A program made the translations under genes and the position numbers. The notes under the pieces are model-generated. The model was given only the letters and a program-made list of their open reading frames with translations, did no database searches and was not told the DNA's origin. Shown one piece after another: positions 7,599-60,409 of a stretch of 64,000 nucleotides of DNA; positions within the stretch are counted from its first letter, which is position 1; each line of letters opens with the position of its first letter. This DNA comes from Bacteroidales bacterium UBA1176 (GTDB taxonomy: Bacteria; Bacteroidota; Bacteroidia; Bacteroidales; WCHB1-69): contig DBYW01000034.1 of assembly GCA_002311645.1 (NCBI GenBank), positions 43,227 to 107,226 on the forward strand, read 5' to 3'.

Positions 7599-7626
7599 GG
7601 GGGGGGTCACATTTTTGGTGAGAGGT
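7599..7626 (+). promoter_or_regulatory. Second copy of the TCACATTTyTGGTGAGAGGT block, preceded by a G8 run
   Basis: GGGGGGGGTCACATTTTTGGTGAGAGGT. The block ends 23 nt upstream of TAATTTTG (7650-7657), the same spacing as at 1233/1257. The ATG of the next gene is at 7721. Confidence 0.4.
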
Positions 7627-7720
7627 GATAAAATGCTATGAAAAAAAAGTAATTTTGCAGTTGCCAAAAGTACTTTTTGGTTTAATTCACTATCTTTGTC
7701 CCACTAAAACACACACCATC

Positions 7721-10837: not shown

Positions 10838-10898
10838 CATACATTTATATAATAGCATAAACATTAAAATTGAAATATAAATTAAAAACAATCTTATT

Positions 10899-43461: not shown

Positions 43462-44712
43462 TTGCCTTCTCCCATGGAAATAATGTCTCCTGCCGGCTCA
43501 TACGAGTCCTTGGTAGCCGCCATCCAGGCGGGTGCCGGGTCCGTCTATTTTGGCGTGGGCGTGCTCAACATGCGCTCCCGGGCGGCGGTAAACTTCACCC
43601 TCGAAGACCTGCCCAAGGTGGCCGCCATCTGCCGCGAACACCACGTCAACAGCTACCTCACCGCCAACACCATCATCTACAACGATGAATTGGAAAAAAT
43701 GCGGACGCTGCTCGACACGGCCAAGACGTGCGACGTCACCGCCATCATCGCCTCGGACATGGCCGTCATCCAATATGCCCGCCAAATCGGATTGGAGGTC
43801 CACATCTCCACACAATGCAACGTCACCAACCTTGAAGCCCTGCGCTATTATGCCCAGTTCGCCGACGTGGTGGTTCTGGGGCGCGAATGTACGCTGCCGC
43901 AGATCAAGGATATCTGCACCGCCATCCGCGAACAAGACATCCGTGGGCCCAAGGGTGAACTCGTCAGGGTCGAGATTTTCGTGCACGGCGCACTCTGCAT
44001 GGCCGTCTCCGGGCAGTGCTACCTCAGCCTCGACAACTACAACTCGCCCGCCAACCGGGGAGCTTGCTACCAGCCTTGCCGCCGTGCCTACACGGTGCGC
44101 GACGTGGATCAGGAAATCGAACTCAAGGTGGAAAACCCCTATATCCTGTCACCCAAGGACCTCTGCACCATAGGCTACCTCGATCTCATCGTGAAGACGG
44201 GTGTGTCCGTGCTCAAAATCGAAGGTCGCGGGCGCGCGCCTGAATACGTGAAGGTCGTGACAGAATGCTACCACGAGGCGGTGCAGGCTATTGAGGAGGG
44301 CACCTATGGCCCGGAAAAAGCGGAAGCGTGGACCGAACGCCTGCGCAGCGTCTATAACCGCGATTTCTGGGGCGGCTACTACTTGGGGCACACCGCCGGC
44401 GAATGGGCCGACCGTTATGGCTCACAAGCTACCCACTACCGTCAGCGTGTTGGCAAAATCACCAATTTCTTCCGAAAACTGTCCGTGGCAGAGGTCACCG
44501 TGGAGGAAGAGAACCTGAACGTGGGTGACCAGATCCTCATCATAGGCCAAACCACCGGCGTTTACGAAGACACCGTGGAGGAAATCCGCGTGGACTACCA
44601 GTCTGCAACCACCGCCGCCAAAGGCGTGGTCTGCTCCATACCGGTCAAGTCGCAGGTGCGCATCGGCGACCAAATCTACAAGTGGGCTGAAAGAGAGTAC
44701 ATAGAGTTATAG
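43462..44712 (+). CDS. Peptidase U32 family protein
   Basis: The U32 signature E-x-F-x-H-G-A-x-C-x4-G-x-C-x-L-S is present as EIFVHGALCMAVSGQCYLS. Confidence 0.88.
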   Translation: MPSPMEIMSPAGSYESLVAAIQAGAGSVYFGVGVLNMRSRAAVNFTLEDLPKVAAICREHHVNSYLTANTIIYNDELEKMRTLLDTAKTCDVTAIIASDMAVIQYARQIGLEVHISTQCNVTNLEALRYYAQFADVVVLGRECTLPQIKDICTAIREQDIRGPKGELVRVEIFVHGALCMAVSGQCYLSLDNYNSPANRGACYQPCRRAYTVRDVDQEIELKVENPYILSPKDLCTIGYLDLIVKTGVSVLKIEGRGRAPEYVKVVTECYHEAVQAIEEGTYGPEKAEAWTERLRSVYNRDFWGGYYLGHTAGEWADRYGSQATHYRQRVGKITNFFRKLSVAEVTVEEENLNVGDQILIIGQTTGVYEDTVEEIRVDYQSATTAAKGVVCSIPVKSQVRIGDQIYKWAEREYIEL

Positions 44713-45050
44713 GCATTTGTCCGCTTCGGCAGAGGCCCTGCAACCACTTAATCGCGGGTGCCACTTGGCATGATGCATTATGTTCGCCCGACGATAAAGG
44801 GATGTACTCGGAGAATAATTTTGCGTGTAACTATTTTTGCACCAGAAAGCGTTTCATTGTCAAAATTTTTTATACTTTTGCATCGCTATAAGCGTGGATT
44901 AGAAGGGATGTCATAAGATTTTACAGTGTTTAAAAAAACGGCAAGAGTATAAGATAAAATTTACATTTCGACCAGATGAGTTTTATTGATTTGACAACAC
45001 GAAACAGTGCAAAAAAAAGCATTGTCTTTCGGCATTGCTTTTTTTCAAGA

Positions 45051-46901
45051 ATGTTTGTACTGATGACATTTTTGTTGATGTCCGTCGTGCCCATGCAGGC
45101 ACAGATCAGGGAACGAATCCAGAACATCAAGAATTCCGATCCTTTGACATTGTCTGGCAACGTGGGCGCTTCGATGGGCATCGCGCACAACAATATCAGC
45201 ACGTATTACTCCACGCCTTTTTCCTATTCGCTCTACGGCAGCCTGAATTTTAACATTTACAGCTTCAACTTGCCGATATCCTTTTATTTCGTAAACAACA
45301 GCACGGAGTTCAGTTATCCCAAAATGCCGCACATTTCGTTAGGCATGACCCCCACCTACAAGAATTGGCGGTTCCATCTGGGTGTGAGCAGCATGCACTT
45401 GTCGAACTACACTTATTCCGGATTGACCTTCATTGGCGCGGGCGCGGAATATCAGGGCAAATTGTTCCGTGCGGCGGCTTTCGGCGGCATCATCAACCGG
45501 AAGACGCGCTTGGAGCAATGGGACGACCGTTCTGCTTTCCAGCGGCTTTCCGACTCGCTGTTAGGCCTCAACATACCGCAATACACCACTCCCCAATACA
45601 GGCGGCTCGGCGGCGGTGCCAAAATCGGCGTGGGCAACACCAAAAACTATATTGACTTGACGTTCTTCAAAGCCAAAGACCAGATCAATTCCTTGCCCGA
45701 GGAGTGGCGCGACACGGTAAAAGCCAAGGAAAACGTCGCCGTGGGTCTCTCCGGACGCTTCGCTATCCGCAACTGGTTCTCCTTTACCGCCAACCTTGGC
45801 GTCACCTTTTACAGCGACAACCTCCGCGACAGTCTCCTCCACATCGACGACAAAACGGACCGTGTTTTCCAGAACCTCAACTGGCTCTACGGCGTGAGAG
45901 GCTCCTCCATTGTGCGCTTCGCGGGCGACGCTGCCATGAATTTCAACTTCAAAGTGTTCAACGCCAATATTTTATACCGTATTGTCCAACCTGATTATGT
46001 TTCGTTAGGCACCTCCAGCTTCAGCCAAAACACCCACAGTATCGGCGTCAATACGAATTTCAGAATGTTCAAAGGCAAGTCGAACCTTACCTTGGTGGGC
46101 TATTTGCAGCGCGACAACCTGAACCACAAACAGATGTACACCAATCAGGTGGCTACTTACACATTGAATTCCAACAACATGATTGGCAGTCATTTCCACT
46201 TGGGATTGATGTACAACGGCATCAAGCAGAACCAATACGACGGCACCACCAAGGTGGCCGACTCGGTACGGCTCAACCGCATCACGCACACGGCGACACT
46301 CTCCCCGATGATTACCTTCCAAACCAAAAACGACCATTCCATATCCCTCAACCTCAGCTTTGTGCAGAATCAGAATCTCAACAAGCTCTATTACGCCAAC
46401 AGTGGCGATGTGATGACATTGACGGGCGGAGTGGGCTACAATATTTCCATCACCCCGGTGAGAGTGTCGGTCAACGCCGGCTACGACTACACCTATTCCA
46501 CCAGCGAAAACTACAGCTACAACGCCCACACGTTGCACTATGGGGTGAATTTCAACATCATGAGCAGGGAAAAGCTCAACTGGAATGCCTATTACAACGG
46601 CTCTGCCGGCTACAATATCGTGAAAGAAGGCGAGAACAACTTCTCCGTCAGCAACTGCTTGGGCAGTTCCTTCAACTTCAATAGTGCCCACACAGCCTCA
46701 CTCTATTTTTCTTTGAGCAATTTCAGTGAGGATATTGTCATCGGCCAGAAGATTGCCACGGCCCTCGACTGCCGCTTCACGCTTGCCTATTCCTATTCTT
46801 TCAAGAAGGTACTGATTAAGAAAAAAGAGGGCGCAAACCAGAAGAAAGAGGATAAGATAACAAAGAAACTACGCAAATTAAGCGAAAAGTCCAAGAATTA
46901 A
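45051..46901 (+). CDS. Predicted outer-membrane beta-barrel protein, first gene of the giant-protein operon
   Basis: ORF 44976..46901. The preferred start is MFVLMTFLLMSVVPMQAQ (signal peptide). Long runs of alternating hydrophobic/aromatic strands with N/G/S turns. The barrel-like end ...FTLAYSYSF is followed by a 32-aa Lys-rich tail. Confidence 0.65.
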   Translation: MFVLMTFLLMSVVPMQAQIRERIQNIKNSDPLTLSGNVGASMGIAHNNISTYYSTPFSYSLYGSLNFNIYSFNLPISFYFVNNSTEFSYPKMPHISLGMTPTYKNWRFHLGVSSMHLSNYTYSGLTFIGAGAEYQGKLFRAAAFGGIINRKTRLEQWDDRSAFQRLSDSLLGLNIPQYTTPQYRRLGGGAKIGVGNTKNYIDLTFFKAKDQINSLPEEWRDTVKAKENVAVGLSGRFAIRNWFSFTANLGVTFYSDNLRDSLLHIDDKTDRVFQNLNWLYGVRGSSIVRFAGDAAMNFNFKVFNANILYRIVQPDYVSLGTSSFSQNTHSIGVNTNFRMFKGKSNLTLVGYLQRDNLNHKQMYTNQVATYTLNSNNMIGSHFHLGLMYNGIKQNQYDGTTKVADSVRLNRITHTATLSPMITFQTKNDHSISLNLSFVQNQNLNKLYYANSGDVMTLTGGVGYNISITPVRVSVNAGYDYTYSTSENYSYNAHTLHYGVNFNIMSREKLNWNAYYNGSAGYNIVKEGENNFSVSNCLGSSFNFNSAHTASLYFSLSNFSEDIVIGQKIATALDCRFTLAYSYSFKKVLIKKKEGANQKKEDKITKKLRKLSEKSKN

Positions 46902-46922
46902 TCACAATTAAACCCTAATATC

Positions 46923-49900
46923 ATGAAACCAATTGTCCGATTTTTCGTCATACTCGCCTGCATGTTTGTCACAACGGCGCAGGCGCAAGTCACGACCACA
47001 ATCACTCCCAAGGTGCAATTGTTCCCGTCGTCAGGATTGAATTATCTGGATGACCCCACCCAGTATTTCAACGTCATCATGACCAACACGGGTCCTGAAG
47101 CCAAGCAGATTTACGTGAGTTTTAGGGTGAGTTGTGACTTTTCGGCTACCGGAGAGAGTTTTTATCTGCAGTCGCCCGCCAATTTGGCGCCACCGCAACC
47201 GTTGACCCTCGCCTCCAATGAGACCCGGGTGATCACGATGCAGAATTTCAGAATGCTGATGTCGCACATCAACGGGCGTGACATCCAGATGGGCGGCATT
47301 ACATGGCAAGACGCCCTGATGTTGCCAGAGGGCAACTATCAGATCTGCATCCAAACCTATTATTGGGACCACGCGGGCACCGTGCCGGCCCCTGTGGAGG
47401 CAGGACCTGCAGGATGCTGCAATTTTACGATTTGCTACTCCGGTTCCGCCCCCGAGTTTACATCCCCCATCATAGGACAGAGCGGTGCCAACATCAATGT
47501 CATCAACCCGATGGCGGACCAGGCGGACAACAACAACGACAACTTCGACGCTGCCAACGGCTCCGACAGCCGCTCCAACTCCGCATACGCCGTGCTCACC
47601 CCTTCGCGTCAAGTGGTTTTCAACTGGACCGGCGTAATCTCCAACTGCATCACCAACTCCAATGTCGACTATATTCTCAAAATCGTCGAGGTGTTCCCAC
47701 AACAGTCCGTATATGATGCCATTGACAATGACCGCACCATTTATACCGTCAACACCGGCTCTCGCACCACTTGCATCATCGACACGATGAATGACCTGAA
47801 CGCCAAGTTCCAGCTTGGGCACACGTATGCCGCCATGGTGCAGGCCGTCCCCAAAAACCAGAATATCATGCTAAAGCTGGGGAACGACGGCAAAAGCCAG
47901 ATTATCACGTTCAGTTGGGGAAAAACGGCCGGAGGCCCTTTCCCGAGGAATATTCCGCCAGGTGGCAACTCCAACAGCCGGACATTAGACTCCTCTTTTA
48001 CAGACAACAAGGCGGATGTGCTGGCCTCCCTGTACGATCCCTACCTTATCATGCCGGCGGTGGACGATGACGCAGCCGATGTCCTCGTGGGCAAATTCCC
48101 CTCCGAGAACGCCAACCGCCCCAAAAACACCAGACCACTCATCGACGGATTATATTACCGCCTCAATGACAAGGACAAATTCAGCGTGTCGTGGCTGCCT
48201 ATGCGCGGCGACTCCCTGACAAAAGTCGAGTATGTCGTCAACCTTTATGAATATATCGGTGGCGATGTCTCTTTCTCCGCATCCCGTCCTCCGTTGAAAT
48301 CCTTCAAAATGACAAAGACGAATGGATTTTCATCCACTTCCGTGGAATATTTATCCCTTCCGGAGAAGTGGGACACTCTGCTGGAGCATGGTAACAAATA
48401 TTTCCTCGTACTTGAAGCAGCCAGCCATTACAAGTACCGGAAAACCACCAACTACACGGAAACCATTGTCGAAAACGGCACCACCACCCAAAACACCTAT
48501 TCCAAATACACCATCATGGAGGGTACGGAATTCTTCTATTCCAATGAAGTGTTCCAATGGGGCTACGACAGCGCATTGCTCGAAACCGTCCAGGTGGCTC
48601 AGCTAATTTATCCTGTGGACATGCGTGGGCGCGCCGCTGACTACGGTCTGGGCGAAACCGAAGTGGAAGAGGTCTATAACAACAGCGCCCTCAACTTCAA
48701 ATGGTCACCGGCCGACAATGTGCTCGATCGCGACACAGTTACCTATAACCTGTTGATTTTCAAATGGAAGAAAGGTATTCTACCTTCCCAGATGAAGGAC
48801 ACCCTGTTCTGCTACAAAAATCTCACTGCGACGGAGTTCATGAACGACACCATCAAGGACTCTCTCAAGGTGGGCAGCCAGTTTGTGGCTGTAGTGGAAA
48901 CACGTGTCAAGCAGGCTGTGGCCACCGACGACCCCTACATCATACCCAACAAGGGTCGTTCCTGGGCAGCTCCGTTCAAGATTGTGGAAACTGCGGAGGA
49001 GACCGCTGATAACGATCCGTCAAGCCAATGTTTCTCAGAGACTTTCGCGAATATTAACAAGAAAGACACCCTCCGGCCCAAAAACATCAATGAAATCAAA
49101 GGCAAGGAGTTGACAATGAACGGCTTCAAGGTTGTTTTCCAAGAAATACAGGAGAAGACCGACTCCATAAAGGACAGAAAGACCAAGAAGGTCACTTTGA
49201 GGAAGAGTTATTACGGCAAAGGATATATCGTGTGGAATCCTTTTGTGCTCAACACACGCATCAAGGTGCAACTCGACTCCATCCTCTTCAACAGCAAATA
49301 CGAGATTTTTACTGGGTGTGCCAAAAGCTTGGCCGCCGACTCCACCGCGCTGTTGCCGATGGATTTCTCAAGTAAGATTGGCGATTGGACCGAAAGCAAG
49401 GTCAACGCCCTTTACTCGAAAGTGGGCAGTGACCAGGACGTCCAGAAATACATCAACTATTTCAACAAGCCTTCCTACACAAGCATCGGCGGCCTGTTCG
49501 GCGCTGGCGACGGCAGTGAAAGCCCCTCCTTCTACTTGCCGCTGAAGGTCAACTCACAGGATTTCTACCTCCCCGACGACGGCTGCAACGTCATCATGGC
49601 CATCAACAACATGTATCTGTCGCCCAAGACGGCGCTCATGAACCTGTTCACCCTGTTCTACAGCCAGGAGGACAACATCTACATCCCGATGATTGCCACC
49701 AACATCTGTATGAAGCCCGACAACTTCTTCCCGGGCATCAATGAGGGCATTGATGTATATTTGGCCAAGGATATTGACATGGAGCTCAGCGACGGTTACA
49801 ATATGACGCTCAAGAGAGCCAGCAAATTGGGCAAGAAGGACGACGGCACGGTCATCTCCTTCCGCACCAAGACGGATGACAAGAGCGCTGGCTTCGAGCA

Positions 49901-52900
49901 GTTGAATCTTGAATTCCAGTTCGACCTCACCTCTTCCTCCGCCCTGGCCCATAACAAGTCGGGCGTACTTGCCCTCAACCCCAAGACCGGTGTTCCGCAA
50001 AAGGGCACGCCTGTCAAGGCCGGCGCCCTCATCATCATCCAAGACTGGAAGGACTGGTTGGCCCGGGTATCCTTCGACCCGTTCGCCCTGGAGGATTTCC
50101 CCGATATGGCTTTCGTGCCAGGACGCAACATCTGGTATGACCACTCTTCCAAGAGCAATCCCGCGAAATTCCCCAAAGATTACCAGTCCAGTGCCGGCAA
50201 GGGCCCCGCCTGGCAGGGATTCTTCATGGAGGACTTGGGGTTTGTGATGTCCGACAAGATCGGTACCGTATTTGGCGCCGGTGACACCAACGTCAAGCCG
50301 ATGTACCAATATAAATACGGGCCGAACGGCGAAATCAAAGACTCTTCCGAAGTGGCCTTCACCAAGCAGTGTCTCGGCTTCCGTATTGCCAACACCATCA
50401 TCGATGCCGAAGGCGTCACCACTGATATCCAGGCGGTCAACATCGTGGACGCCTCCACCAAGGATGCCGGCAGTTGGGCCTTCTCCATCGACACCATCGG
50501 CGTGAAAGTGCTCAAAGGCAAGTTTAACAAGGGCTACATTGTCGGCACCGCCCAAGTGCCGCTGATGACCGGACGCCTTAACTACAACTGCGCCATCGCC
50601 ACCGACAGCTTGACCTTCGGATTATCCACCAAGAAAAAAGACACCCTCGGTTTCGATCTCTGGCTGGCCAAACTCGACATCCAGCAATCCTACTTCAAAC
50701 TGGTACACAAATATGAAAAGACGGCCGCCGACAGTGCCCATCCGCAAACAGCCATCGACCTGAAACTCAACGGCAAGATAAACATCGACTTCCAGAAGCT
50801 CAAGATTCCCGTCAACTTCGCGATGGTGAAATTCGAGAACTTCACCCTGCGCAACTTCAAAAATGCCAAGGACACCAACGTCAAACGCATTGGCGACAGC
50901 GACCTCTGGTTTTACATGGGCGACTGGGCGAAGGCCTCGCCACAGCACTATCTTTCCAGCAACGCCAGCAACAAGGATGTCTATACCGGGTCCATCGGCG
51001 GGTTCACCTTCTCGGTGCAAACCATCAAGCCCGTGTATGGCTTGGAAGGCACCAAAGCGAAACTCGGGTTTGCCACGGCCATCAAGGTAGGCTTCAAGAC
51101 CGGACCCAAAGAGACCAATGACAAAGGAGAATCCTCCGACGCATTTTCCATTGACGCCGGCTGCGGCTTCAAGGTATGGGGTAAGATTGACTACAAGAGT
51201 TGGGATTTCAACAAGGATGACATCGGTGGATCCGTCGATTCCGTCACCATCGAAACCGACTGCTTCTCGGTGTTCAAACTGAAGGGCAAACTGGTCTGGA
51301 TCGGCAACGAAAACCCAGACCCGACCTATGGCGAAGGCATGTTTGGCTCGCTGGACGTCACCATCATGGACAAGATAGAAATTGCGATGGCTGCTGCCTT
51401 CGGCACAGTCGGACAAGACACGTCCAGCTACAAGTGGTGGATGTTCCAAGGCGCGGCCACCGGCTTTGAGATCCCGGTGCCACCCATTGTCTTCACCGGC
51501 TTCGGCGGCGGTTTTGCCTACAATATGACCGTGAAGCCGAGCGCGACATTGGCCAATGCCAAGGCCCACGACCTCATCTCCGGCGACGACGGCGCGTCCT
51601 TGGCCGCCAAGATGGTGTCGGGCAGTCTCTCCCAGTGCGAATTCATACCCCAGAAAAACAGTTGGGTGGCCAAGGCTGGCCTCAGTCTCTCTCTCGCCAA
51701 CGAGAAGCTGATGAACGCCGACGGCATCCTCACCCTGCGCGTCTCCAGGGGCAAATTCAGCGGCATCTTGATTGATGTGTCCACCTATATTCTCACAGAC
51801 CCGTCAGGCGCTGCCGCCACCGCTGCCGCTGAAGAGAAAAACAAGAACACCATGATCAAGGCCCGGGCCCTGATGGGTTACGAACAAAACGACGATTACC
51901 ACTACTTCAAATTCGCCCTCTGCGTCAAAGGCGGAATAGACTTGACCAACATGCTCAAGAATTCGGGTATCACGCAGGCGCTTGACGGTGTAAAAGACAA
52001 GATTAACTGCTTTGGCAACGATGTGATAAAAGATGTGACTTGTGCATTCGATCCCTTGACCAACGTGGCTACCATAGACTCCACCGCAGGCAAGGCCAAA
52101 ACCGACTCGGCTGTTGCCGCAGGCATTGGCGCAGGCATTAACTTTGCGCTTCCCATCGAATTCGAGGTGACATCCTATAAGAAAGGCAACTCGTTAGGGA
52201 AAAGCGGCACCGACTGGTACTTCTGCATCGGAAAACCCACACCCGGCGAACGCGTGGAATTCAACATGTGGGCCAACCTTGTCATCTTTGAGACGAGCAC
52301 CAAGTTCACTTTCTACTTCATCACCGGCAACAGCTTCGACTTTGAGTTGCCGCCATTAGACCCGGAGGTGGAAGAGTTTTTCTTCGGCGGATCTTCCGGC
52401 AAACAAGTCAACACCAATGCCACCAACACGGTGGACCAACAGGGCCAGGAGTTGAAGAATATGTATAAAAACTCGCCCAAGTTCAAGAATGCCGGTGGTT
52501 TTGCAATGGGCATGACGTACAGATCCGAAATCAAATACGAGATGTTCCTTTACATCCAGGTGATGGCGGCCTTCGGTTTCGATGTGGCTTTGCTGGACAC
52601 CAAGGGACAGTCGTGTGAAGGGTATGATCATATCGGAAAGAATGACTTCTACGCTATGGGCCAGTTGTATGCAATGCTGAAGGGCTCTGCCGGTTTGAGC
52701 ATCAACCTCGGATTCTGGAAGGGTAAACTGGAGCTGTGCAGCCTCGGCATCGGCGCTCTCCTCAAGGGTGGCGGTCCGCGTCCTTCCTGGGCGTTCGGAT
52801 TGCTGCGCCTCAAGGCCTCTCTGCTGAACGGCCTGATATCCATCAACACGAGTGTCGATTTCCATGTGGGCAACGTCTGTGTTCCCGGCGCCGGCGACCC

Positions 52901-55900
52901 GTTGGCCAACGTCAACTTCTTCGAAAGCATCACCCCCGGATACAAAGATGCGGCCACGGCATTGAAGGATGGCAACGCGGCGTCACCTATCGGCGGCGGC
53001 GTCATTGTCTCCAACATGCCTTGGAACCAAGCGGTCACCCTCGTGACACCCACTGCAGACGGCAGGGGCGAAGATGCCCGTAAATTCATCTTCGTGATAG
53101 AGAAGAACAAATGCAAACATGAATTCTCCAAGAATCGCGGCACCAGCTGGAGCACAGTGAACAGAAATACCTACAAAATAGAATCTTATCCCAATGATGC
53201 GAACACTCTGTTGTTTGAGGATAATGAAGGTGGTTTTGAGGAAAAGTCCTTGCAAAGATGGAGCTTTACCGCCCGTGCATACGAGTATCGCTTGGCGTTC
53301 GACACTAAAAACAGCAGGTTGAAGGACACTTGTTACGATGAAAACAACAACTTCGTATTCAAAAAGATACCGACAAAATTCGACAACACCACTTGGGGAT
53401 GGTACAACCCCAAGTATACGAATGACAAGGACAGCGCCATCCATGTTTTCCGCCAGGACACGGTAATCTATTTCAACATCGACTCGCTGCCTGACAACCT
53501 CTACAACCAAGTGGTTTATTCGTGGCCGTATAACGGGGATCCTTCAATTCCCAAAGACGAATTTAAGGCTGATTTCGGTGGAAATCATGAGATTAGAATA
53601 TACTTGGCCAAATCTCGTCCCGAGCTCTTTGACCCACAGTTCCTGACTGCCAACGGCAAAGAGATTCAATTCTGGCTTTTCAAAGGCTATGGTGGATTCA
53701 ATAGCCAGCCGTTACGCTGCACCGATTACTATTACTATTCTAATGCAGGACTTCCTTTCATACGAGTGAAAGTGGACGACTCCTTTATAGAGAAAGGAAA
53801 GCCCTATATATTACGAATGTTGTTGGTGAACAAGGCTGACTACCAAAACGCCATCGACAACCTGATGGCGGCGCAACGGGTGTCTACCCGCACGGATTAT
53901 GAGCTCACCAGCCAGAACTGGGACAAGGTATATGCTTCCCACAGAGCCAGCACAAGCACGGGAACTTCTGGAAGTCACCTCAATGTCGGGAATTTCAACT
54001 TTTACTCCAATTCCAAAATAGAAGCCTTGAATCAGCGAATAGAGCATGAGGCTGGAGTGGCCAATCTGGAACCAGTACTGGGCGGAGGATTGTCGAGACC
54101 CAGTCTGGGTGATATTTTCGGTACAGGAACAGGTAATACCACACCCGGCCACGGAACGTTTACTGGAACCACCAATCCCACCATCACCAATCCAGGAACT
54201 TTTATAAGGCCTGCCACCTCATCCCGGCTGACTAACACTGCAAACAACGGTGTGATACTCACCAATTCAGCGAACCTCAATTCCGGCGTGTTGGCCAACA
54301 ACAACCTGAATGCAGGTCTTTTAGAGGTCAATGCCAATCTGGAAACGAATAAGAACATGACTACCGGAAACAGGGGCAGACTGAGAAGTAGTTCCGCCAA
54401 CTCTAACTCCAACGACAACACCGCTGCTACCGGGTCAACGACCATACAGGCCCGCGGTCAACTGAACGGTTCCCTCTCAAACTCATCTTCTTCAAATAAT
54501 CTGAATGTCACTAGTTTGAATGCCCGCAACCTGGTCAAGAGAGAGAGCAACACCATTCAGAGAAAAGGTCAGATTGTCATCTCTGACAACACATCCAACT
54601 CCGCCACTACAATTAATGGCAACACCGTGGTGGTGAACACTTCGTTGGTCAGAATCCCCTCCACAAGCAACTCCAACTCTACCGGCGGCTCGATCACGGG
54701 GGTGTATCATCCGGTTATCAACACGAGTGACAATAGACTCAGCAATGGGTCTCATAACGGCCTGCTCCCGACTTTGGTGGCCACAACGACAACGGATAAT
54801 GTCAGCGTGGAAGATTACCAATATGAGAAATTGAGAGAGGATTACACCGATCAGGGAAGCGACACCTCCATGCTCTACGAAAGAAAGTCCCTTGAAGAGT
54901 ATACCATAGCCTATCAGCTTGGCGACACCATCTATGACCTCTGCTTCAAGACGGATCCTAATTACAGCACATACGAGGAGTTGTTCACGAACATAATGGC
55001 TTGTTACAACAGTGGCATCTCTGCCTCAGGTCCCTCTTCCAGCGCAAGTTCATCGGTCTTCCCGATTATGACATCATCCTCCACCGCACAAAGGTTCGGA
55101 TGGTATTCGTATCTGTTCGTCCCGCAAACCCCGAATGACGCCAACCGCTACAACACCAATGTGAAGTTGCCCGCCATCGCCGCCTTCGTACTCAGCACCG
55201 CCGAGGAACACCGGACAGCAGCAATGGCCAAGCACCTCTTCCTGATGACACAGTTCTCCATGATGAGAGACTATTCCAACTTATACACCAATGCCCCGAT
55301 AAAGAAGATACCTCATCAAAATGACCATGTGGGCAGTTACCGGGATGATTTCTCCATCAACGGTTCCTGGGATGATATCGACTGTGACTACAACCAAGAC
55401 TTCTTCAATGGAACCCAAGGCGGTATTATCCGCGATTATAGCAAAAGTTGGAAGAATCTGGATCTGCGTTCCTACACCGTGTCCCGAAGGGCGAGTACAA
55501 ACCCGGACATGTTTGAACCTTGCGGCCAAATCCTCGGCCATGGTTTGACACTCCCGGATGAATACAGGACCTATTTTGCACAACAATATTGGGCGGTGCC
55601 TAACTTGTTGGAGGTCTCCACAACACGCTCCAAGACAGCCGTTATCACAATTAAATCGTTCGGTGAAAAACAGTCCGATTGGGAAGACTACAATGGCTCC
55701 AGAAACTCCATTGCAACTGTGACCATTACCGACAAAGCCACACCTGCGATGTATGATGACATCAAGATGTTTTTTGATTTCTTCAAAAAATGCACTGAGA
55801 TTGCCGCTTATCCGCTGAACAGGGGATACAGCCACAAGAAAAACATCTTGAAGAAACTCTATTCGGCAGATTATGCCCATGCTTGCCTGCAATTCGACAA

Positions 55901-56438
55901 CGACTTCCCCTACACGATCAACAAGTCTTTGCCTTGGACGCATTATTTCAATGCCTGGAACAACCTGTACACGCTCGGTAACGATTTCAACCCCAACGCT
56001 TCCAATCCGGAGACCATGCACGTGAGCAGAGCCAGCTATCAATTCTATTCCTGGTTGTGGTTCCACTATAAAAAAGCACCCAACACTTGGGAGGGCACAA
56101 AGGGTATGACCGTTGTTTTTGATGACAAAGACGGCAGGACATTGCCCAATTGGTACAGCAACATGAACAATTTGGCCACCAATGACAAACCGTACGTGAA
56201 AATTGTATATGCATCCGGTGGCGATAACAGTACCACCATTGCCAGACAAATCAAGACTAATCTGTTTGGATCAGGAGAAGACATCCATGACAGTGCATAC
56301 AATTTCAACAAAACAGTGTCACGTTCATGGAAACTGAACAACTACAAGAAAGACGCAACCTGGACGACCAAAGACAACAACACCCAGAAACTCACCTTCC
56401 CGGATTACAAAAACGTGGAGGCTTATATAGACGATTAA
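46923..56438 (+). CDS. 3171-aa secreted giant protein, unknown function
   Basis: A single uninterrupted ORF starting 21 nt after the barrel gene. Signal peptide MKPIVRFFVILACMFVTTAQAQ. N-terminal FN3/Ig-like modules (FNWTG, FSWGK, SVSWLP, FKWSP), a huge beta-rich body, an N/S/T-rich linker (about 54120-54800) and an aromatic-rich C-terminal domain. No T9SS CTD and no lipobox. Confidence 0.9.
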   Translation: MKPIVRFFVILACMFVTTAQAQVTTTITPKVQLFPSSGLNYLDDPTQYFNVIMTNTGPEAKQIYVSFRVSCDFSATGESFYLQSPANLAPPQPLTLASNETRVITMQNFRMLMSHINGRDIQMGGITWQDALMLPEGNYQICIQTYYWDHAGTVPAPVEAGPAGCCNFTICYSGSAPEFTSPIIGQSGANINVINPMADQADNNNDNFDAANGSDSRSNSAYAVLTPSRQVVFNWTGVISNCITNSNVDYILKIVEVFPQQSVYDAIDNDRTIYTVNTGSRTTCIIDTMNDLNAKFQLGHTYAAMVQAVPKNQNIMLKLGNDGKSQIITFSWGKTAGGPFPRNIPPGGNSNSRTLDSSFTDNKADVLASLYDPYLIMPAVDDDAADVLVGKFPSENANRPKNTRPLIDGLYYRLNDKDKFSVSWLPMRGDSLTKVEYVVNLYEYIGGDVSFSASRPPLKSFKMTKTNGFSSTSVEYLSLPEKWDTLLEHGNKYFLVLEAASHYKYRKTTNYTETIVENGTTTQNTYSKYTIMEGTEFFYSNEVFQWGYDSALLETVQVAQLIYPVDMRGRAADYGLGETEVEEVYNNSALNFKWSPADNVLDRDTVTYNLLIFKWKKGILPSQMKDTLFCYKNLTATEFMNDTIKDSLKVGSQFVAVVETRVKQAVATDDPYIIPNKGRSWAAPFKIVETAEETADNDPSSQCFSETFANINKKDTLRPKNINEIKGKELTMNGFKVVFQEIQEKTDSIKDRKTKKVTLRKSYYGKGYIVWNPFVLNTRIKVQLDSILFNSKYEIFTGCAKSLAADSTALLPMDFSSKIGDWTESKVNALYSKVGSDQDVQKYINYFNKPSYTSIGGLFGAGDGSESPSFYLPLKVNSQDFYLPDDGCNVIMAINNMYLSPKTALMNLFTLFYSQEDNIYIPMIATNICMKPDNFFPGINEGIDVYLAKDIDMELSDGYNMTLKRASKLGKKDDGTVISFRTKTDDKSAGFEQLNLEFQFDLTSSSALAHNKSGVLALNPKTGVPQKGTPVKAGALIIIQDWKDWLARVSFDPFALEDFPDMAFVPGRNIWYDHSSKSNPAKFPKDYQSSAGKGPAWQGFFMEDLGFVMSDKIGTVFGAGDTNVKPMYQYKYGPNGEIKDSSEVAFTKQCLGFRIANTIIDAEGVTTDIQAVNIVDASTKDAGSWAFSIDTIGVKVLKGKFNKGYIVGTAQVPLMTGRLNYNCAIATDSLTFGLSTKKKDTLGFDLWLAKLDIQQSYFKLVHKYEKTAADSAHPQTAIDLKLNGKINIDFQKLKIPVNFAMVKFENFTLRNFKNAKDTNVKRIGDSDLWFYMGDWAKASPQHYLSSNASNKDVYTGSIGGFTFSVQTIKPVYGLEGTKAKLGFATAIKVGFKTGPKETNDKGESSDAFSIDAGCGFKVWGKIDYKSWDFNKDDIGGSVDSVTIETDCFSVFKLKGKLVWIGNENPDPTYGEGMFGSLDVTIMDKIEIAMAAAFGTVGQDTSSYKWWMFQGAATGFEIPVPPIVFTGFGGGFAYNMTVKPSATLANAKAHDLISGDDGASLAAKMVSGSLSQCEFIPQKNSWVAKAGLSLSLANEKLMNADGILTLRVSRGKFSGILIDVSTYILTDPSGAAATAAAEEKNKNTMIKARALMGYEQNDDYHYFKFALCVKGGIDLTNMLKNSGITQALDGVKDKINCFGNDVIKDVTCAFDPLTNVATIDSTAGKAKTDSAVAAGIGAGINFALPIEFEVTSYKKGNSLGKSGTDWYFCIGKPTPGERVEFNMWANLVIFETSTKFTFYFITGNSFDFELPPLDPEVEEFFFGGSSGKQVNTNATNTVDQQGQELKNMYKNSPKFKNAGGFAMGMTYRSEIKYEMFLYIQVMAAFGFDVALLDTKGQSCEGYDHIGKNDFYAMGQLYAMLKGSAGLSINLGFWKGKLELCSLGIGALLKGGGPRPSWAFGLLRLKASLLNGLISINTSVDFHVGNVCVPGAGDPLANVNFFESITPGYKDAATALKDGNAASPIGGGVIVSNMPWNQAVTLVTPTADGRGEDARKFIFVIEKNKCKHEFSKNRGTSWSTVNRNTYKIESYPNDANTLLFEDNEGGFEEKSLQRWSFTARAYEYRLAFDTKNSRLKDTCYDENNNFVFKKIPTKFDNTTWGWYNPKYTNDKDSAIHVFRQDTVIYFNIDSLPDNLYNQVVYSWPYNGDPSIPKDEFKADFGGNHEIRIYLAKSRPELFDPQFLTANGKEIQFWLFKGYGGFNSQPLRCTDYYYYSNAGLPFIRVKVDDSFIEKGKPYILRMLLVNKADYQNAIDNLMAAQRVSTRTDYELTSQNWDKVYASHRASTSTGTSGSHLNVGNFNFYSNSKIEALNQRIEHEAGVANLEPVLGGGLSRPSLGDIFGTGTGNTTPGHGTFTGTTNPTITNPGTFIRPATSSRLTNTANNGVILTNSANLNSGVLANNNLNAGLLEVNANLETNKNMTTGNRGRLRSSSANSNSNDNTAATGSTTIQARGQLNGSLSNSSSSNNLNVTSLNARNLVKRESNTIQRKGQIVISDNTSNSATTINGNTVVVNTSLVRIPSTSNSNSTGGSITGVYHPVINTSDNRLSNGSHNGLLPTLVATTTTDNVSVEDYQYEKLREDYTDQGSDTSMLYERKSLEEYTIAYQLGDTIYDLCFKTDPNYSTYEELFTNIMACYNSGISASGPSSSASSSVFPIMTSSSTAQRFGWYSYLFVPQTPNDANRYNTNVKLPAIAAFVLSTAEEHRTAAMAKHLFLMTQFSMMRDYSNLYTNAPIKKIPHQNDHVGSYRDDFSINGSWDDIDCDYNQDFFNGTQGGIIRDYSKSWKNLDLRSYTVSRRASTNPDMFEPCGQILGHGLTLPDEYRTYFAQQYWAVPNLLEVSTTRSKTAVITIKSFGEKQSDWEDYNGSRNSIATVTITDKATPAMYDDIKMFFDFFKKCTEIAAYPLNRGYSHKKNILKKLYSADYAHACLQFDNDFPYTINKSLPWTHYFNAWNNLYTLGNDFNPNASNPETMHVSRASYQFYSWLWFHYKKAPNTWEGTKGMTVVFDDKDGRTLPNWYSNMNNLATNDKPYVKIVYASGGDNSTTIARQIKTNLFGSGEDIHDSAYNFNKTVSRSWKLNNYKKDATWTTKDNNTQKLTFPDYKNVEAYIDD

Positions 56439-56492
56439 AAAAGCATACGTTACAGTACAATTCAGAGAAGTCAACAAATAAACAGCGCTAAT

Positions 56493-58661
56493 ATGAAAAA
56501 AATAATATGGTCCGCGATATTGATGATGATATGCATGGGTGTCCCTCGCATATATGCGCAAGACACCGTCAAGATCCGTCAGAACAACAAGGTGGTGTTG
56601 CTCTACCGCGCGTATGGTGACAGTGTGGTTTTCCGCTGGGCACCTGAGGATGCCGGTTTATGGATGCTCGCCAACAAGCACGGGTGGTTGCTCGAACGCT
56701 CGTTGACGGATGAGGAAATCAAAAAGTCGGGTAACAGTTCCCGCATTGACACCCTCCTGAACAACGGCAAACCCATCCGTCCGCTCACTTTGGAGCAGTT
56801 CCAGCAGCAGTTCGACAGCACCGACATGCATGCCGGCGCCGCCGCCCAGGCCCTGTACGGGGAGGGCGCGTTTGTTACCGACCCTAACGACCAGAACGGT
56901 TTTATGAATTATGTGTTTCGCAAGGACCAGGAACAGCAACAGCGTCATTTCATGGCCCTGCTGGCTGCCGAAGGCCATCCCGAGATCATGAATGCCTTGG
57001 GCTTGCGCTATGTGGATCGCACCGTGAAGAAGGGTGAGTGGTATGACTACACCCTTCGCACGCCCGTTCCCAAACACCTTTATGATGTGCCCCCGGTCTC
57101 CGTCATCTTCCAGAATGTCCCTTACGTGCGCACGGAAGAAGAGATGATGCCCACTGTGGAGATACAGCAAATAGACGCCTATCGAGCTATCGTCTATTGG
57201 AAAAAGAACAAGCTGTCGGGCTATTTTATTGAAAGAAAAACCAACAAGGACCGCAATTGGGAACCTATGAACAACGTGCCCATCTATGGATACAATCCCG
57301 ATGAGGAGACCTACAAGGTGCTGGGTGAGGATGTCGCCAGATTGATGGAAAACAATGTGGCGTTCATTGACTCCCTGGATCTGAAAACCCAGTACCAGTA
57401 CCGCGTGCGAGCATTTGACGCCTTCGGCGATTATGTGCCCTACAAAGAGAGCGAGAAATTTGAGATGATGGACCTTGTCCCACCCACCATCCCCATCATC
57501 ACGGGTTGTGTCCCCAAAGACAACACAACCTGCACGGTCTATTGGGAAAAGAATGTGATAGAAGATGACTTTGAAGGCTATCTGCTCACCTTCTCCGACT
57601 CACCCGACGGCCCGTGGTCGAATGTGTCGGATTTGCTGGGACCCAAGACCAAGCAATATTTGGACGAGTATGCCGGAGTGCGCGGCAGAGGATACTACAA
57701 GCTCATCGCATACGACAAGTACAAGAACGTCAGCTTCTCCAGCTCTGCCCTCAACAACATAGAGGACGTGGTGCCGCCCGTGAAGCCCACCGGACTGAGA
57801 GCCTTGGTAGATTCTGCAGGTCTGGCCCATTTCACTTGGGATAAGAATCCCGAAAAGGATGTGATGGGCTATCGTGTTTTCTTCGCCAACCAGATGGACC
57901 ACGAATTCGTGGAGTGTTCCCATGGTCTGGCCCACACCAATGCCTTCATCGACACCCTCGATTGGCACACCATCACCAAGTATGCCTACTACTATATCAT
58001 GGCTGAGGACTACAGTCACAACGTGTCGGAGCACTCCGACACCATTGCGGTGCCCGTTCCCGACAAAATCCCCCCCACCCCGTGCATCTTGGACGACATC
58101 ACGGTGACCGACAACACTGTGGTGGTGCGCTGGACCAAGAGCGCTTCCTCCGATGTGATGTACTATTTCATCTATCGCAAATTGAAAAAGCAGAAACAGT
58201 GGGAATTGCAACAGGCTGTGCAGCCGTGGCAAATCATCGAGGCCGATTATATCGTCTTTATTGACCATCCGACACCATCGTCCGACATGTACCAATACTG
58301 CATTGAAGCGGTGGACGATTTCCACAACACGTCTGGCCGGTCGGGTTATGCCAATGCGTTTGTACGCGAAGCCCTGGTCGTGGACCTTCCCATCCAGTTA
58401 AAGGCTTCTGCCGACAAGAAGAACAACAGCGTCACATTGGATTGGGCGTACGACTATATGGGGCGCCATCACCATTACGGATTGATATATCGCTCTGTCA
58501 ACGGCTCTGAATATCAGGCATACCAGCGGTTTGAAAAAGGCACCAAGACCTTTGTTGACCGGGATTTGAAGGCTGGCGACAAGGTCAGCTACTATATCGT
58601 CCTGTATTTCGGCAAGGGCCAGCGCTCGCTGCCCTCGCAAGAGGTTCAGGCAGGGCTGTAG
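56493..58661 (+). CDS. Secreted protein with five FN3-like modules
   Basis: Signal peptide MKKIIWSAILMMICMGVPRIYAQ. Repeated modules have a W-strand (VYWKK, VYWEK, FTWDK, VRWTK, LDWAY), a Y-x-Y-x-(V/I) strand (YQYRVRAFD, YYKLIAYD, YYYIMAED, YQYCIEAVD) and D-x-(V/I)-P-P-x-x-P linkers. Confidence 0.8.
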   Translation: MKKIIWSAILMMICMGVPRIYAQDTVKIRQNNKVVLLYRAYGDSVVFRWAPEDAGLWMLANKHGWLLERSLTDEEIKKSGNSSRIDTLLNNGKPIRPLTLEQFQQQFDSTDMHAGAAAQALYGEGAFVTDPNDQNGFMNYVFRKDQEQQQRHFMALLAAEGHPEIMNALGLRYVDRTVKKGEWYDYTLRTPVPKHLYDVPPVSVIFQNVPYVRTEEEMMPTVEIQQIDAYRAIVYWKKNKLSGYFIERKTNKDRNWEPMNNVPIYGYNPDEETYKVLGEDVARLMENNVAFIDSLDLKTQYQYRVRAFDAFGDYVPYKESEKFEMMDLVPPTIPIITGCVPKDNTTCTVYWEKNVIEDDFEGYLLTFSDSPDGPWSNVSDLLGPKTKQYLDEYAGVRGRGYYKLIAYDKYKNVSFSSSALNNIEDVVPPVKPTGLRALVDSAGLAHFTWDKNPEKDVMGYRVFFANQMDHEFVECSHGLAHTNAFIDTLDWHTITKYAYYYIMAEDYSHNVSEHSDTIAVPVPDKIPPTPCILDDITVTDNTVVVRWTKSASSDVMYYFIYRKLKKQKQWELQQAVQPWQIIEADYIVFIDHPTPSSDMYQYCIEAVDDFHNTSGRSGYANAFVREALVVDLPIQLKASADKKNNSVTLDWAYDYMGRHHHYGLIYRSVNGSEYQAYQRFEKGTKTFVDRDLKAGDKVSYYIVLYFGKGQRSLPSQEVQAGL

Positions 58662-58693
58662 CCGTTAGCATTTAGCCGTTAGCCAATAGCCAA
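58659..58693 (+). repeat. Five perfect-register heptads TAGCCGT TAGCATT TAGCCGT TAGCCAA TAGCCAA beginning with the stop codon of the FN3 gene
   Basis: TAG at 58659, 58666, 58673, 58680 and 58687. The array fills the whole spacer up to the convergent sulP stop (CTA at 58697-58699). Confidence 0.8.
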
Positions 58694-58696
58694 CAG

Positions 58697-60409
58697 CTAA
58701 TGCAGAATCTCAGTATTTTCCAGAAACTCCGTGCACTCCTCAAAGGTGGCGAAGGTGTGTTCCTTCGGGATCACGGCGGGGATGACGTTCATCTTGGTGA
58801 GCATATACATAGGCTGCGGCTGGATGATGGTCATCAACACGATGATGCCCTTGGCCTGCAAGTCCTTGATGGCCGTCTCCATTGCATAAAGCCCTGACTG
58901 GTCCATAAAGCTGACCAGACGCATTCTGATAATCACAATCTTGACATCGTCGGGCACGTCGTGCATCACCTCCTGGAAACGGGTGATGGAGCCGAAAAAG
59001 ATTGGGCCGTTGAGGCGCTGGATGTAGATTTGGTGCTTGGTCTCTTCCGAAAGCCCGTGCTCGTCCTTCCAGGGCAACTCCTTGTCGAACTGGTTGATTT
59101 CGCCCGACTGGTAGCCACTCTCCACCAAGTCGCTGGCGCGTTTCATAAAGAGCACGCAAGCAATGATCATTCCGATACCCACAGCAATGAGCAAATCGAC
59201 GAAGACGGTAAGCAGCAGTACGGTGATGAGCACCACAGCGTCGGCGCGCGGGATGTTGGGCAGGTCTTTCAGTCCTTTGAAGTCGATGATGCCGACACCC
59301 ACGGTGATGAGGATGCCGGAAAGCACTGACAGCGGCACGTATTTCACAAAACGGCCGAGTCCGAGCAGGATGGCGAGCAGGAAAAGTGCATGCACGATGC
59401 CCGACAGACGGGTGCGTCCACCGCTCTTCACGTTGACGACCGTACGCATGGTGGCACCCGCGCCGCCGATGCCCGCGAACAAACCCGCAAACATATTGCC
59501 GATGCCCTGACCAATCAATTCCTTGTTGCTGTTATGCTTGGTCTTGGTGATATTGTCGGCCACCACGGAGGTGAGCAGCGTGTCGATGGAGCCGAGGCCC
59601 GCGAGGGTGAGCGCGGGAATGGCGGCGCTCTTCAGCACTGCGCCCCACTGGATGCCCGCCAAGGAGACCTTCGTGAAAACAGGAAGCGGAAATCCCGACG
59701 GTATCTCGCCGATGGTCAGGTTGGAGTTGAAATCCTTGACAAACAAGGAGACAACCGTCACCACTATCAATGCCACCAACGTGGCAGGCACTTTCTTGGT
59801 GATCAACGGGAAAAGGTAGATGATGGCAATGGTCGCCAAACCGAAAATGAGCGCGTGGATGTCGAAGCCTGCGATTCGTGACGGGAACTGCGTGATCATA
59901 TCCACGATGAGCACCGGCGATTTCATCCCGAACAGCGGATAGATCTGCTGCAGGATGATGATGATGCCGATACCGCTCATAAAGCCCGACAATACCGGGT
60001 AGGGGATGTAGCGGATATATTTGCCGATTTTCAGGATGCCGAAAAGGATCTGGAAAACGCCGCAGAGCATGCCCGCCACCGACATCGTGACGAGCACCGT
60101 CTCGATGGAGTGCGCGCCCCCCGCCGACCAGATGCCGGAGATGAGCGTAGCCGTGATGACCGTCATCGGTCCCGTGGGGCCGCTGATTTGTGACGGCGTG
60201 CCCCCGAACAGGGAGGCGAAGAATCCGACCATAATGGCACCCACCAGGCCCGCCAGGGCTCCGATGGCTCCGATATTGGGAATGTCTTGCACGTCAATCA
60301 CGCCGAAGGCCTGGATACCGAAAGCCAAGGCTAAGGGAAGGGCCACGATGCCGGCGGTGATGCCGCCGAAGATGTCCCCTTTCAAATTGCTGGTATTTAG
60401 TTTATTCAT
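58697..60409 (-). CDS. SulP-family inorganic anion transporter with C-terminal STAS domain
   Basis: GDIFGGITAGIVALPLALAFG, a multi-pass membrane core, and a C-terminal soluble ~120 aa that is STAS-like. Confidence 0.9.
   Translation of the reverse strand: MNKLNTSNLKGDIFGGITAGIVALPLALAFGIQAFGVIDVQDIPNIGAIGALAGLVGAIMVGFFASLFGGTPSQISGPTGPMTVITATLISGIWSAGGAHSIETVLVTMSVAGMLCGVFQILFGILKIGKYIRYIPYPVLSGFMSGIGIIIILQQIYPLFGMKSPVLIVDMITQFPSRIAGFDIHALIFGLATIAIIYLFPLITKKVPATLVALIVVTVVSLFVKDFNSNLTIGEIPSGFPLPVFTKVSLAGIQWGAVLKSAAIPALTLAGLGSIDTLLTSVVADNITKTKHNSNKELIGQGIGNMFAGLFAGIGGAGATMRTVVNVKSGGRTRLSGIVHALFLLAILLGLGRFVKYVPLSVLSGILITVGVGIIDFKGLKDLPNIPRADAVVLITVLLLTVFVDLLIAVGIGMIIACVLFMKRASDLVESGYQSGEINQFDKELPWKDEHGLSEETKHQIYIQRLNGPIFFGSITRFQEVMHDVPDDVKIVIIRMRLVSFMDQSGLYAMETAIKDLQAKGIIVLMTIIQPQPMYMLTKMNVIPAVIPKEHTFATFEECTEFLENTEILH

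Follow-up and report, generated by a model that had tools for sequence, protein, structure and literature searches.

The stretch of DNA analysed here, hereafter the window, comprises 64,000 nucleotides (nt) of contig DBYW01000034.1 from Bacteroidales bacterium UBA1176, and our subject is a set of three genes within it, the second of which encodes a giant protein. The three open reading frames (ORFs) are co-directional, all on the + strand, occupy 44976-46901, 46923-56438 and 56493-58661, and specify products of 641, 3171 and 722 amino acids (aa), respectively. Spacers of 21 nt between gene 1 and the giant and of 54 nt between the giant and gene 3 make them one tightly spaced co-directional unit. 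Each product has an N-terminus resembling a signal peptide when judged by eye. The ORFs, their spacers, an AT-rich leader upstream and a convergent sulP gene downstream are as an initial annotation of the window had stated them, and the signal peptides it assigned to all three proteins also fit, with the reservation that the start of gene 1 is ambiguous. The features of the unit are as follows.

44713..44975, + strand: AT-rich leader, candidate promoter region; 263 nt with a GC content of 0.40, against 0.515 for the whole window
44976..46901, + strand: gene 1, predicted outer-membrane beta-barrel, 641 aa counted from M1 (AlphaFold2 model, Foldseek)
46923..46988, + strand: gene 2 (giant), signal peptide (MKPIVRFFVILACMFVTTAQAQ), read from the sequence and kept in the family consensus
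46989..47522, + strand: gene 2, TANFOR-like N-terminal domain, aa ~23-200 (rumen-clade hidden Markov model against distant giants)
47535..49097, + strand: gene 2, three related modules of ~150 aa each, aa 205-350, 395-560 and 561-725 (hhalign)
49200..53072, + strand: gene 2, conserved all-beta core, aa ~760-2050 (family conservation, AlphaFold2)
53925..54782, + strand: gene 2, Asn/Ser/Thr/Gly-rich low-complexity linker, aa 2335-2620 (composition)
54783..56438, + strand: gene 2, clade-specific C-terminal domain, aa 2621-3171, including the stop codon (clade distribution)
56493..58661, + strand: gene 3, with signal peptide (..RIYAQ), N-terminal domain of ~190 aa and five FN3 modules, aa 216-722 (Pfam, PDB, hhalign)

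The three genes had been expected to be syntenic in related genomes, and this is what was found. A scan of one genome per species gave 73 loci, whose gene content was taken from a hidden Markov model (HMM) census. Complete triads are present at 53 of the 73, kept across Bacteroidota and Ignavibacteria; 43 have the order 1-2-3 and eight the order 2-3-1, one carries a surplus piece of the giant behind gene 3, and one has gene 1 divergent on the opposite strand. Among the incomplete loci, 15 are cut by contig ends, two have a fragmented giant and three lack gene 1 despite there being room for it, to which locus L007, described below, is added. A gene-3 homologue adjoins the giant in 60 of the 73 loci. 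Homology searches with BLAST for genes 1 and 3 also placed the triad at the loci of five homologues of the giant (73%, 38%, 35%, 24% and 23% identity), in differing surroundings. Lineages with triads are rumen and gut Bacteroidales, Bacteroidaceae, Cytophagales (Spirosomataceae, Flectobacillus), Sphingobacteriales (Pedobacter), Marinilabiliales (Marinilabilia), Saprospirales (Saprospiraceae), Chitinophagales, Flavobacteriales and Ignavibacteria (Ignavibacteriaceae), and the genes that flank the triad differ from clade to clade. The locus in a water-buffalo rumen Bacteroidales metagenome-assembled genome (MAG; L010) is 98% identical, which locates the origin of the window. Because the linkage survives permutation of the gene order, comparative sequence data provide strong evidence for a joint function of the three genes. 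Within the same genomes, identity is ~56% for gene 1, ~45% for gene 3 and ~35% for the giant, an order of conservation that would be as expected of machinery as opposed to cargo.

Two copies are found in some genomes (L007/L008, L027/L040 and L026). At L007 (6950-7470; uncultured Bacteroidales RUG125, scaffold_265) the RluD and U32 flanks are those of the window (44600-47100) and gene 1 is deleted; a gap of 500 nt leads to the giant, and its last ~40 nt still code for a leftover of the Lys-rich gene-1 tail. A complete triad is present on another scaffold (L008) of this MAG, so that barrels may be shared between copies, or the bin may mix strains.

A further complete triad is located in Persicobacter sp. 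JZB09 (L083:13920-22469, on the 1.58-Mb replicon CP012852.1), where the giant has just 1563 aa; this is a cultured strain, and its public record is nearly without annotation. At the other extreme of size, a Saprospiraceae MAG encodes a giant of 5573 aa (L072:7952-24670). At L026:1-16003 one gene 3 lies between two giants, and at L003:18755-19297 and L011 an additional ORF of 180 aa, without a PDB match, is inserted between giant and gene 3. Two triad contigs (L030, L035) are labelled as bins of Oscillospiraceae, a Firmicutes family, and are most likely mis-binned Bacteroidales contigs. On Bergeyella porcorum plasmid pQD2021 (NZ_CP136427.1; L081:11000-47400) numerous short ORFs correspond to parts of gene 1, giant and gene 3, interspersed with ORFs containing deaminase domains, SprB repeats, PKD domains and type IX secretion system (T9SS) sorting domains; this is either a decayed locus or a frameshift-ridden assembly.

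The start of gene 1 lies at M1 or at M26 (45051), and an identical database protein starts at M35. Its product consists of a signal peptide up to ..PMQAQ, a barrel region (aa 57-614), a terminal strand ..LAYSYSF and a Lys-rich helical tail (aa 615-641). The AlphaFold2 (AF2) model, built from an alignment of 62 homologues, has a mean predicted local distance difference test score (pLDDT) of 77.3 and a predicted template modelling score (pTM) of 0.61, and contains 26 strand segments within aa 57-614 and two low-confidence loops. When this model was compared with the PDB by Foldseek, the matches were exclusively closed outer-membrane barrels with the largest ones ranked first: MtrB (26 strands, E 1e-10), the FimD/PapC ushers (24 strands), SlpA (30 strands) and LptD (26 strands), at template modelling (TM) scores of about 0.4 and 10-12% identity. 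Because the matches are of this kind, closure of the predicted barrel seems probable, and the earlier assignment of gene 1 to the outer-membrane barrels agrees with the model. Searches of Pfam, NCBIfam and PDB sequences gave no match, also with a profile of 62 sequences, and each of the 171 homologues found is unnamed. The gene-1 product thus models as a very large barrel of ~26 strands outside any described family.

The C-terminal tail of gene 1 is an observation of its own. Outer-membrane barrels normally end at an aromatic residue, and a helical tail beyond that point is unusual. In the homologue alignment a Lys-rich helix of ~27 aa (aa 615-641; 46818-46898) is conserved past the terminal aromatic strand.

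The anatomy of the giant was drawn from 77 homologues and from the giants of 73 further genomes. Its N-terminal domain (aa ~23-200) is kept down to relatives of 23% identity. The three modules that follow (aa 205-725) align to each other with hhalign probabilities of 89-96% and to the N-terminal domain with ~0%, and this region is variable, its occupancy falling in distant relatives. The initial annotation had read four FN3/Ig-like modules in the first 700 aa; these are instead one TANFOR-like N-terminal domain and three related modules of ~150 aa, none of which scores as fn3. The core, in turn, is kept in every relative, again down to 23% identity, and includes the motif GFGGGFAYNM. Conservation peaks at aa 1900-2000, two Cys residues (aa 1898 and 1986) are invariant in the family, and the most conserved core stretch is rich in Gly and hydrophobic residues. 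From the end of the core to aa 2334 conservation is weaker. The linker (286 residues, among them 47 Asn, 39 Ser, 37 Thr and 30 Gly) is nearly absent outside the close clade, and a tandem-repeat scan did not find a DNA repeat array in it. At E<=1e-3, the family of the core comprises at least 1150 clusters (50% identity) matching query aa 1380-2050, with proteins of 1500-5500 aa from gut, rumen, soil, freshwater and marine Bacteroidota. This large and widespread family is essentially without literature.

Modelling of the core (aa 850-2049; pLDDT 67.5, pTM 0.47) predicts ~37 strands of 10-20 residues arranged in hairpin runs, with few helices. Foldseek returned local resemblance only, to LptD (3e-7), SlpA, SprA (8gl6_A, E 5e-4, TM 0.17) and ApoB100, with TM scores of 0.1-0.2, and nothing below 1e-3 against viral structures. 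The giant has no match in Pfam or NCBIfam, the models for T9SS sorting domains, RHS, two-partner secretion (TPS), AsmA/TamB and SprA included, and none among PDB sequences, either as a single protein or as a family profile. What had been stated of it in the negative stands: in Pfam and NCBIfam it has no recognisable T9SS, RHS or TPS match. A full-length relationship with SprA, TamB or any known adhesin, which would have spoken against the initial reading, was not found by these libraries, the PDB profile or Foldseek. The AsmA/TamB-like groove that had been offered for its body finds no such entry among the Foldseek matches and a model that is unsupportive. As an RHS shell, a beta-solenoid or a TamB groove the core had zero supporting matches in Pfam or Foldseek.

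A faint resemblance to DUF6603 (PF20248) was also recorded. Weak precomputed matches to this family exist on four giant homologues, and in homologue P0017 the segment around GFGGGFAYNM aligns to the first 200 model positions (21-208). However, the score in P0017 is 25.4 bits against a cut-off of 27, the giant of the window gives no hit, and the family is one for which no literature was found.

Gene 3 was examined with five sub-alignments from 67 homologues, in which its modules 1-5 are mutually homologous with hhalign probabilities of 95-99% in all pairs. Module 1 matches Pfam fn3 (2.7e-9), the only Pfam or NCBIfam match obtained with the three proteins or with N-terminal tiles of 250 aa, and comparison with the PDB gave weak matches to titin, contactin and fibronectin. 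The five FN3 modules first noted in this protein are accordingly retained. By contrast, the FN3 signature with a conserved Trp strand that had been taken to link genes 2 and 3 is not upheld, with an hhalign probability of ~0 between the giant's N-terminal modules and the FN3 modules of gene 3; the two are not the same repeat.

The relationship of the giant to TANFOR proteins was assessed with TIGR02542, a model of an N-terminal domain of 145 aa that has a curated cut-off of 67 bits. No match to it was obtained at E<=0.1 with the whole giant or at E<=10 with aa 1-250. In distant giants the model scores 26 bits in each of two Dyadobacter proteins, 33 in Marinilabilia and 51, over the whole model, in Pedobacter segetis, all below 67. 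An HMM of giant aa 1-205, made from the rumen clade alone, matches the giants of Pedobacter (3.5e-11), Marinilabilia (3.7e-10) and Dyadobacter, in the range 1e-8 to 1e-11, and the residues it matches are those matched by TIGR02542 in the same giants. The Marinilabilia giant, at L058, is WP_010662230.1; it belongs to the same core-defined family and is among the TANFOR proteins listed by Jana, Salomon and Bosis (2020, Supplemental Data 1; PMC7073777). Because of the shared residues and of this listing, the giant is a remote homologue of TANFOR-headed proteins that lies below the curated cut-off. The TANFOR label that the initial annotation had tentatively offered was right in direction, given the homology of the N-terminal domain, but the giant fails TIGR02542 itself. 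Similarly, the statement that none of the three proteins is assignable to a known family holds as regards the lack of library matches for gene 1 and the giant, but not as regards the giant's remote TANFOR kinship. Weak secondary matches of the N-domain HMM were seen in P0067 (aa 1547-1620 and 2269-2343) and in the giants of L058 (901-972) and L059 (939-1008), and part of a TANFOR-like fold may recur inside giant bodies.

TANFOR has been described as a toxin-trafficking domain, and TANFOR-headed proteins are defined as polymorphic toxins (PMC7073777). The export route was left open in that work, with T9SS as the hypothesis and a barrel unmentioned. Literature searches on TIGR02542, DUF6603 and PF20248 yielded nothing beyond this 2020 paper. 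The giant resembles the TANFOR giants in its Sec signal peptide, the homologous N-terminal domain of ~150 aa with Ig/FN3-like modules next, its size, its restriction to one phylum and the FN3 proteins nearby. It differs in lacking a recognisable toxin and an immunity gene, and also in its beta core of 1300 aa and its pair of conserved partner genes, which are not described in PMC7073777. Toxin-tipped members are mostly shorter and from Flavobacteriia and Chitinophagia, while the members with triad-like neighbours (Dyadobacter, Marinilabilia and Tannerella forsythia) have no toxin domain in the published table (PMC7073777). In these three, the upstream protein is of ~550 aa and the downstream protein, with a signal peptide, of ~665 aa; the flanking sizes match ours in Dyadobacter and T. 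forsythia, and in T. forsythia the triad is known by the protein sizes in that table only. A vesicle proteome included the TANFOR giant of T. forsythia (PMC10682907), which shows that such proteins are produced and associate with the envelope.

The C-terminal domain of the giant gave 43 matches among 351 collected proteins, all of them C-terminal on giants of the same rumen clade, with 24-36% identity in BLAST high-scoring segment pairs to mid-range homologues. By this distribution, the domain passes vertically within the clade and is not mobile. No Pfam or NCBIfam domain was found in aa 2051-3171, and the C-terminal domain has no PDB match. A small immunity-like ORF after the giant is likewise missing, gene 3 beginning 54 nt on. 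In the relatives (32 C-terminal regions and 18 far relatives), Pfam identified LRR, ricin-type lectin, Big_5 and fn3 domains and NCBIfam PARCEL repeats on one protein, and neither library identified a toxin family in these 50.

One locus outside the census pattern bears on how the parts belong together. On plasmid pEMTOL03 of Emticicia oligotrophica DSM 17448 (NC_018743.1; L080:6822-29095), a gene-1 homologue of 614 aa (E 2e-36) precedes a giant of 2719 aa. The first 384 residues of this giant match the TANFOR-type N-terminus of Dyadobacter proteins (E 1e-25 to P0074), and its C-terminus has a WHH motif and is annotated as an HNH endonuclease. It is followed by an SMI1/KNR4 immunity gene, an IS1 element and an N-terminally truncated ORF that contains the core, which looks like a displaced orphan left after replacement of the toxin tip. 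A gene-3 homologue was not found at this locus. The barrel therefore appears to go with the TANFOR head even on another body, and gene 3 with the core. By analogy, a nuclease tip and immunity gene behind a gene-1 homologue imply that the chassis can deliver its end outside the producing cell.

The involvement of the T9SS was examined through its C-terminal sorting domain (CTD). Neither a type A (TIGR04183/PF18962) nor a type B (TIGR04131) CTD is present on the giant, gene 1 or gene 3, and none was found on the 32 C-terminal regions and 18 far relatives; a direct search with the window's own CTDs was equally negative. As a positive control, an S8 subtilase of 1314 aa encoded in the window (3450-7394) matches Por_Secre_tail at 4.9e-11. 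The UniRef name 'T9SS type A sorting domain' carried by P0306 was not reproduced, as Pfam finds no CTD in that protein and its C-terminus is unlike the CTDs of the window.

With modest confidence, and as the account we favour on balance, we propose that the operon is a self-contained, dedicated envelope export/anchoring module for a TANFOR-headed giant surface protein. The giant would cross the inner membrane via Sec. The gene-1 barrel would be the giant's private outer-membrane conduit and/or anchor; in solved structures, the lumen of barrels with 24-26 strands (LptD, MtrB, ushers) is occupied by a partner polypeptide. The TANFOR-like N-terminal domain would be the handle coupling giant to barrel, since the Emticicia gene-1 homologue is paired with a giant that shares the N-terminus only. 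The FN3 protein is probably a periplasmic or surface scaffold for the core; it seems to travel with the core and not with the barrel, because it is missing from the Emticicia toxin locus. The variable C-terminal part would then be the exposed payload, in the rumen clade a domain of 550 aa on a long Asn/Ser/Thr linker. For the rumen-clade giant, we regard a role in adhesion, or another role at the surface, as likelier than interbacterial killing, because there is no immunity gene and the tip is vertically inherited. A private export/anchoring pair of barrel and giant had been suggested in the initial annotation; its support, by analogy, is the gene-1 homologue ahead of a nuclease-tipped TANFOR giant with an immunity gene, whereas the FN3 link between genes 2 and 3 drawn alongside it has failed.

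The unit would thus follow the genetic logic of two-partner secretion without that system's homology. As in TPS and contact-dependent inhibition (CDI; TpsB-TpsA, CdiB-CdiA-CdiI; type Vb), a dedicated outer-membrane barrel lies beside a Sec-exported giant whose N-terminal handle and beta-rich body are conserved and whose tip varies, and in the Emticicia relative the tip is a nuclease with an immunity gene and a displaced orphan after it. However, gene 1 has ~26 strands in the model and no POTRA or N-terminal globular domains, in contrast to the 16-strand Omp85 barrel of TpsB; by Pfam and by the PDB family profile, neither a TPS domain nor haemagglutinin/FHA repeats are present in the giant; and the third conserved gene, for the FN3 protein, has no counterpart there. 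MtrAB, LptDE and FimD/PapC provide the best structural matches of the gene-1 model and have lumens that can hold a partner polypeptide, but the likeness is in barrel shape alone. Gene 1 lacks the plug and the N- and C-terminal domains of ushers and the jellyroll of LptD. A chaperone-usher system in particular is not indicated, as FimD/PapC match at TM 0.38-0.42, Usher has no Pfam match and no chaperone gene is present in the unit.

Several observations weigh against this proposal. L007, L061, L066 and L077 are without gene 1 although space for it exists. Most toxin-tipped TANFOR proteins adjoin PKD lipoproteins or SprB-repeat T9SS cargo, with no obvious gene-1 homologue (PMC7073777). Genetic linkage speaks for shared function and not for a mechanism. 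Finally, the core matches no structures other than membrane barrels and the ApoB100 sheet that wraps lipid, so that judging by the model the giant could itself be membrane-embedded and not a passenger.

A broader claim, which we put forward tentatively and regard as possible though doubtful, is that the gene-1 barrel family and the TANFOR N-terminal domain constitute a new Bacteroidota outer-membrane export pathway, independent of T9SS and unrelated to Omp85 or type V systems. The TANFOR handle would be what the ~26-strand barrel recognises in the giants that it exports or displays, with tips ranging from adhesive to nuclease, and the FN3 protein and beta core would form an envelope-spanning stalk. 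If this were true, it would answer how TANFOR toxins leave the cell, and the conserved barrel and FN3 partner are a concrete candidate for the route left open in 2020. Were the barrel the conduit, Bacteroidota, whose surface proteins influence the ecology of gut and rumen, would possess an outer-membrane export device of a new kind.

That the giant is no passenger at all is unlikely in our judgement, though it is the alternative that we rate highest. Here the ~37-strand core would be embedded in or wrapped round the outer membrane, as an SprA/LptD-like barrel or a lipid-binding beta-belt, and would make up, with the gene-1 barrel and the FN3 chain, a fixed structure across the envelope, for instance a channel, a tether or a conduit for lipid or glycan. 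The core model is almost all long antiparallel hairpins with strands of 10-20 residues, the Foldseek matches at E<1e-3 are solely LptD, SlpA, SprA and ApoB100, and conservation across the superfamily is concentrated in the core, not the tip, its most conserved stretch being the Gly- and hydrophobic-rich one. Five FN3 modules would, moreover, be able to span the periplasm. If correct, the core would rank with SprA and LptD as one of the largest outer-membrane assemblies known. However, at TM scores of 0.1-0.2 no fold is assigned, the modelled turns are short on both sides of the sheet, unlike the alternation of short turns and long loops in outer-membrane barrels, and there is no AsmA, TamB or SprA signal in the sequence. 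The variable binding or toxin tips and the immunity gene of the Emticicia relative point instead to an exposed, delivered end. A somewhat smaller chance is given to the giant being a T9SS substrate, with gene 1 as a PorP/SprF- or PorV-like docking or anchoring partner and gene 3 as an accessory. A giant adhesin beside a small barrel is known T9SS logic from SprB/SprF, and such pairs, like ours, combine a giant surface protein with a neighbouring barrel gene in Bacteroidota genomes that encode a T9SS; T9SS cargo is also present in this genome, as the S8 protease of the window illustrates, and at the Dyadobacter locus the downstream FN3 protein has a weak Por_Secre_tail. A T9SS is encoded in over 95% of the genomes with TANFOR proteins, and the neighbourhood is enriched in CTD and SprB-repeat proteins (PMC7073777), but this co-occurrence is uninformative because nearly all Bacteroidota have the system. 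Against a T9SS route, the searches for type A and B CTDs described above were negative, and gene 1 has no PorP_SprF or PorV match, lies outside that family and is about twice the size of its members.

A CDI-style interbacterial polymorphic toxin, in which the C-terminal 550 aa would be an unrecognised toxin, is in our view quite improbable for this giant, for all that the definition of TANFOR-headed proteins as polymorphic toxins (PMC7073777), the Emticicia arrangement of WHH tip, SMI1/KNR4 gene and orphan core behind IS1, and the presence of two copies in some genomes would accord with it. The C-terminal domain is vertically inherited in its clade and was never seen on another chassis among the 351 proteins, the position after the giant is taken by gene 3 without a small ORF between, the scan of 50 relatives was free of toxin families, and the triad-type TANFOR proteins of Dyadobacter, Marinilabilia and T. 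forsythia are without toxin domains in the published table.

The leader contains three Bacteroidetes-type -7 boxes (TAnnTTTG), at 44816, 44832 and 44873, the first of these being an addition to the two noted initially. In the whole window, both strands considered, the motif occurs 38 times against 28 expected, so the boxes in the leader count as consensus evidence only. A scan for sigma-70 promoters and terminators stayed at background level, the GC content of the operon is no different from its surroundings, and an Rfam search of the whole window gave no match. The genes 5' of the leader are housekeeping genes: purB, upp, an RluD-type pseudouridine synthase and a U32 peptidase. On the other side, a SulP/STAS permease gene (58697-60409) is convergent with gene 3 and lies 35 nt past it, followed by a TonB-dependent barrel.

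Further from the operon, the ORF that follows the S8 subtilase (7625-8890; a frame of 421 aa) matches Por_Secre_tail less strongly and at residues 116-186, an odd position for a C-terminal signal; this frame begins with GTG and could be a miscall. At 9581-14504 there are two adjacent Fibrobacter succinogenes major domain proteins, the larger of which also contains PKD and fn3-like modules. Lastly, a 14-nt unit (TAGCCGTTAGCAAA) repeated 2.4 times at 58659-58691 fills the 35 nt that separate the stop codons of the convergent gene 3 and sulP, and a comparable short-repeat texture is present 3' of the U32 gene in L007.

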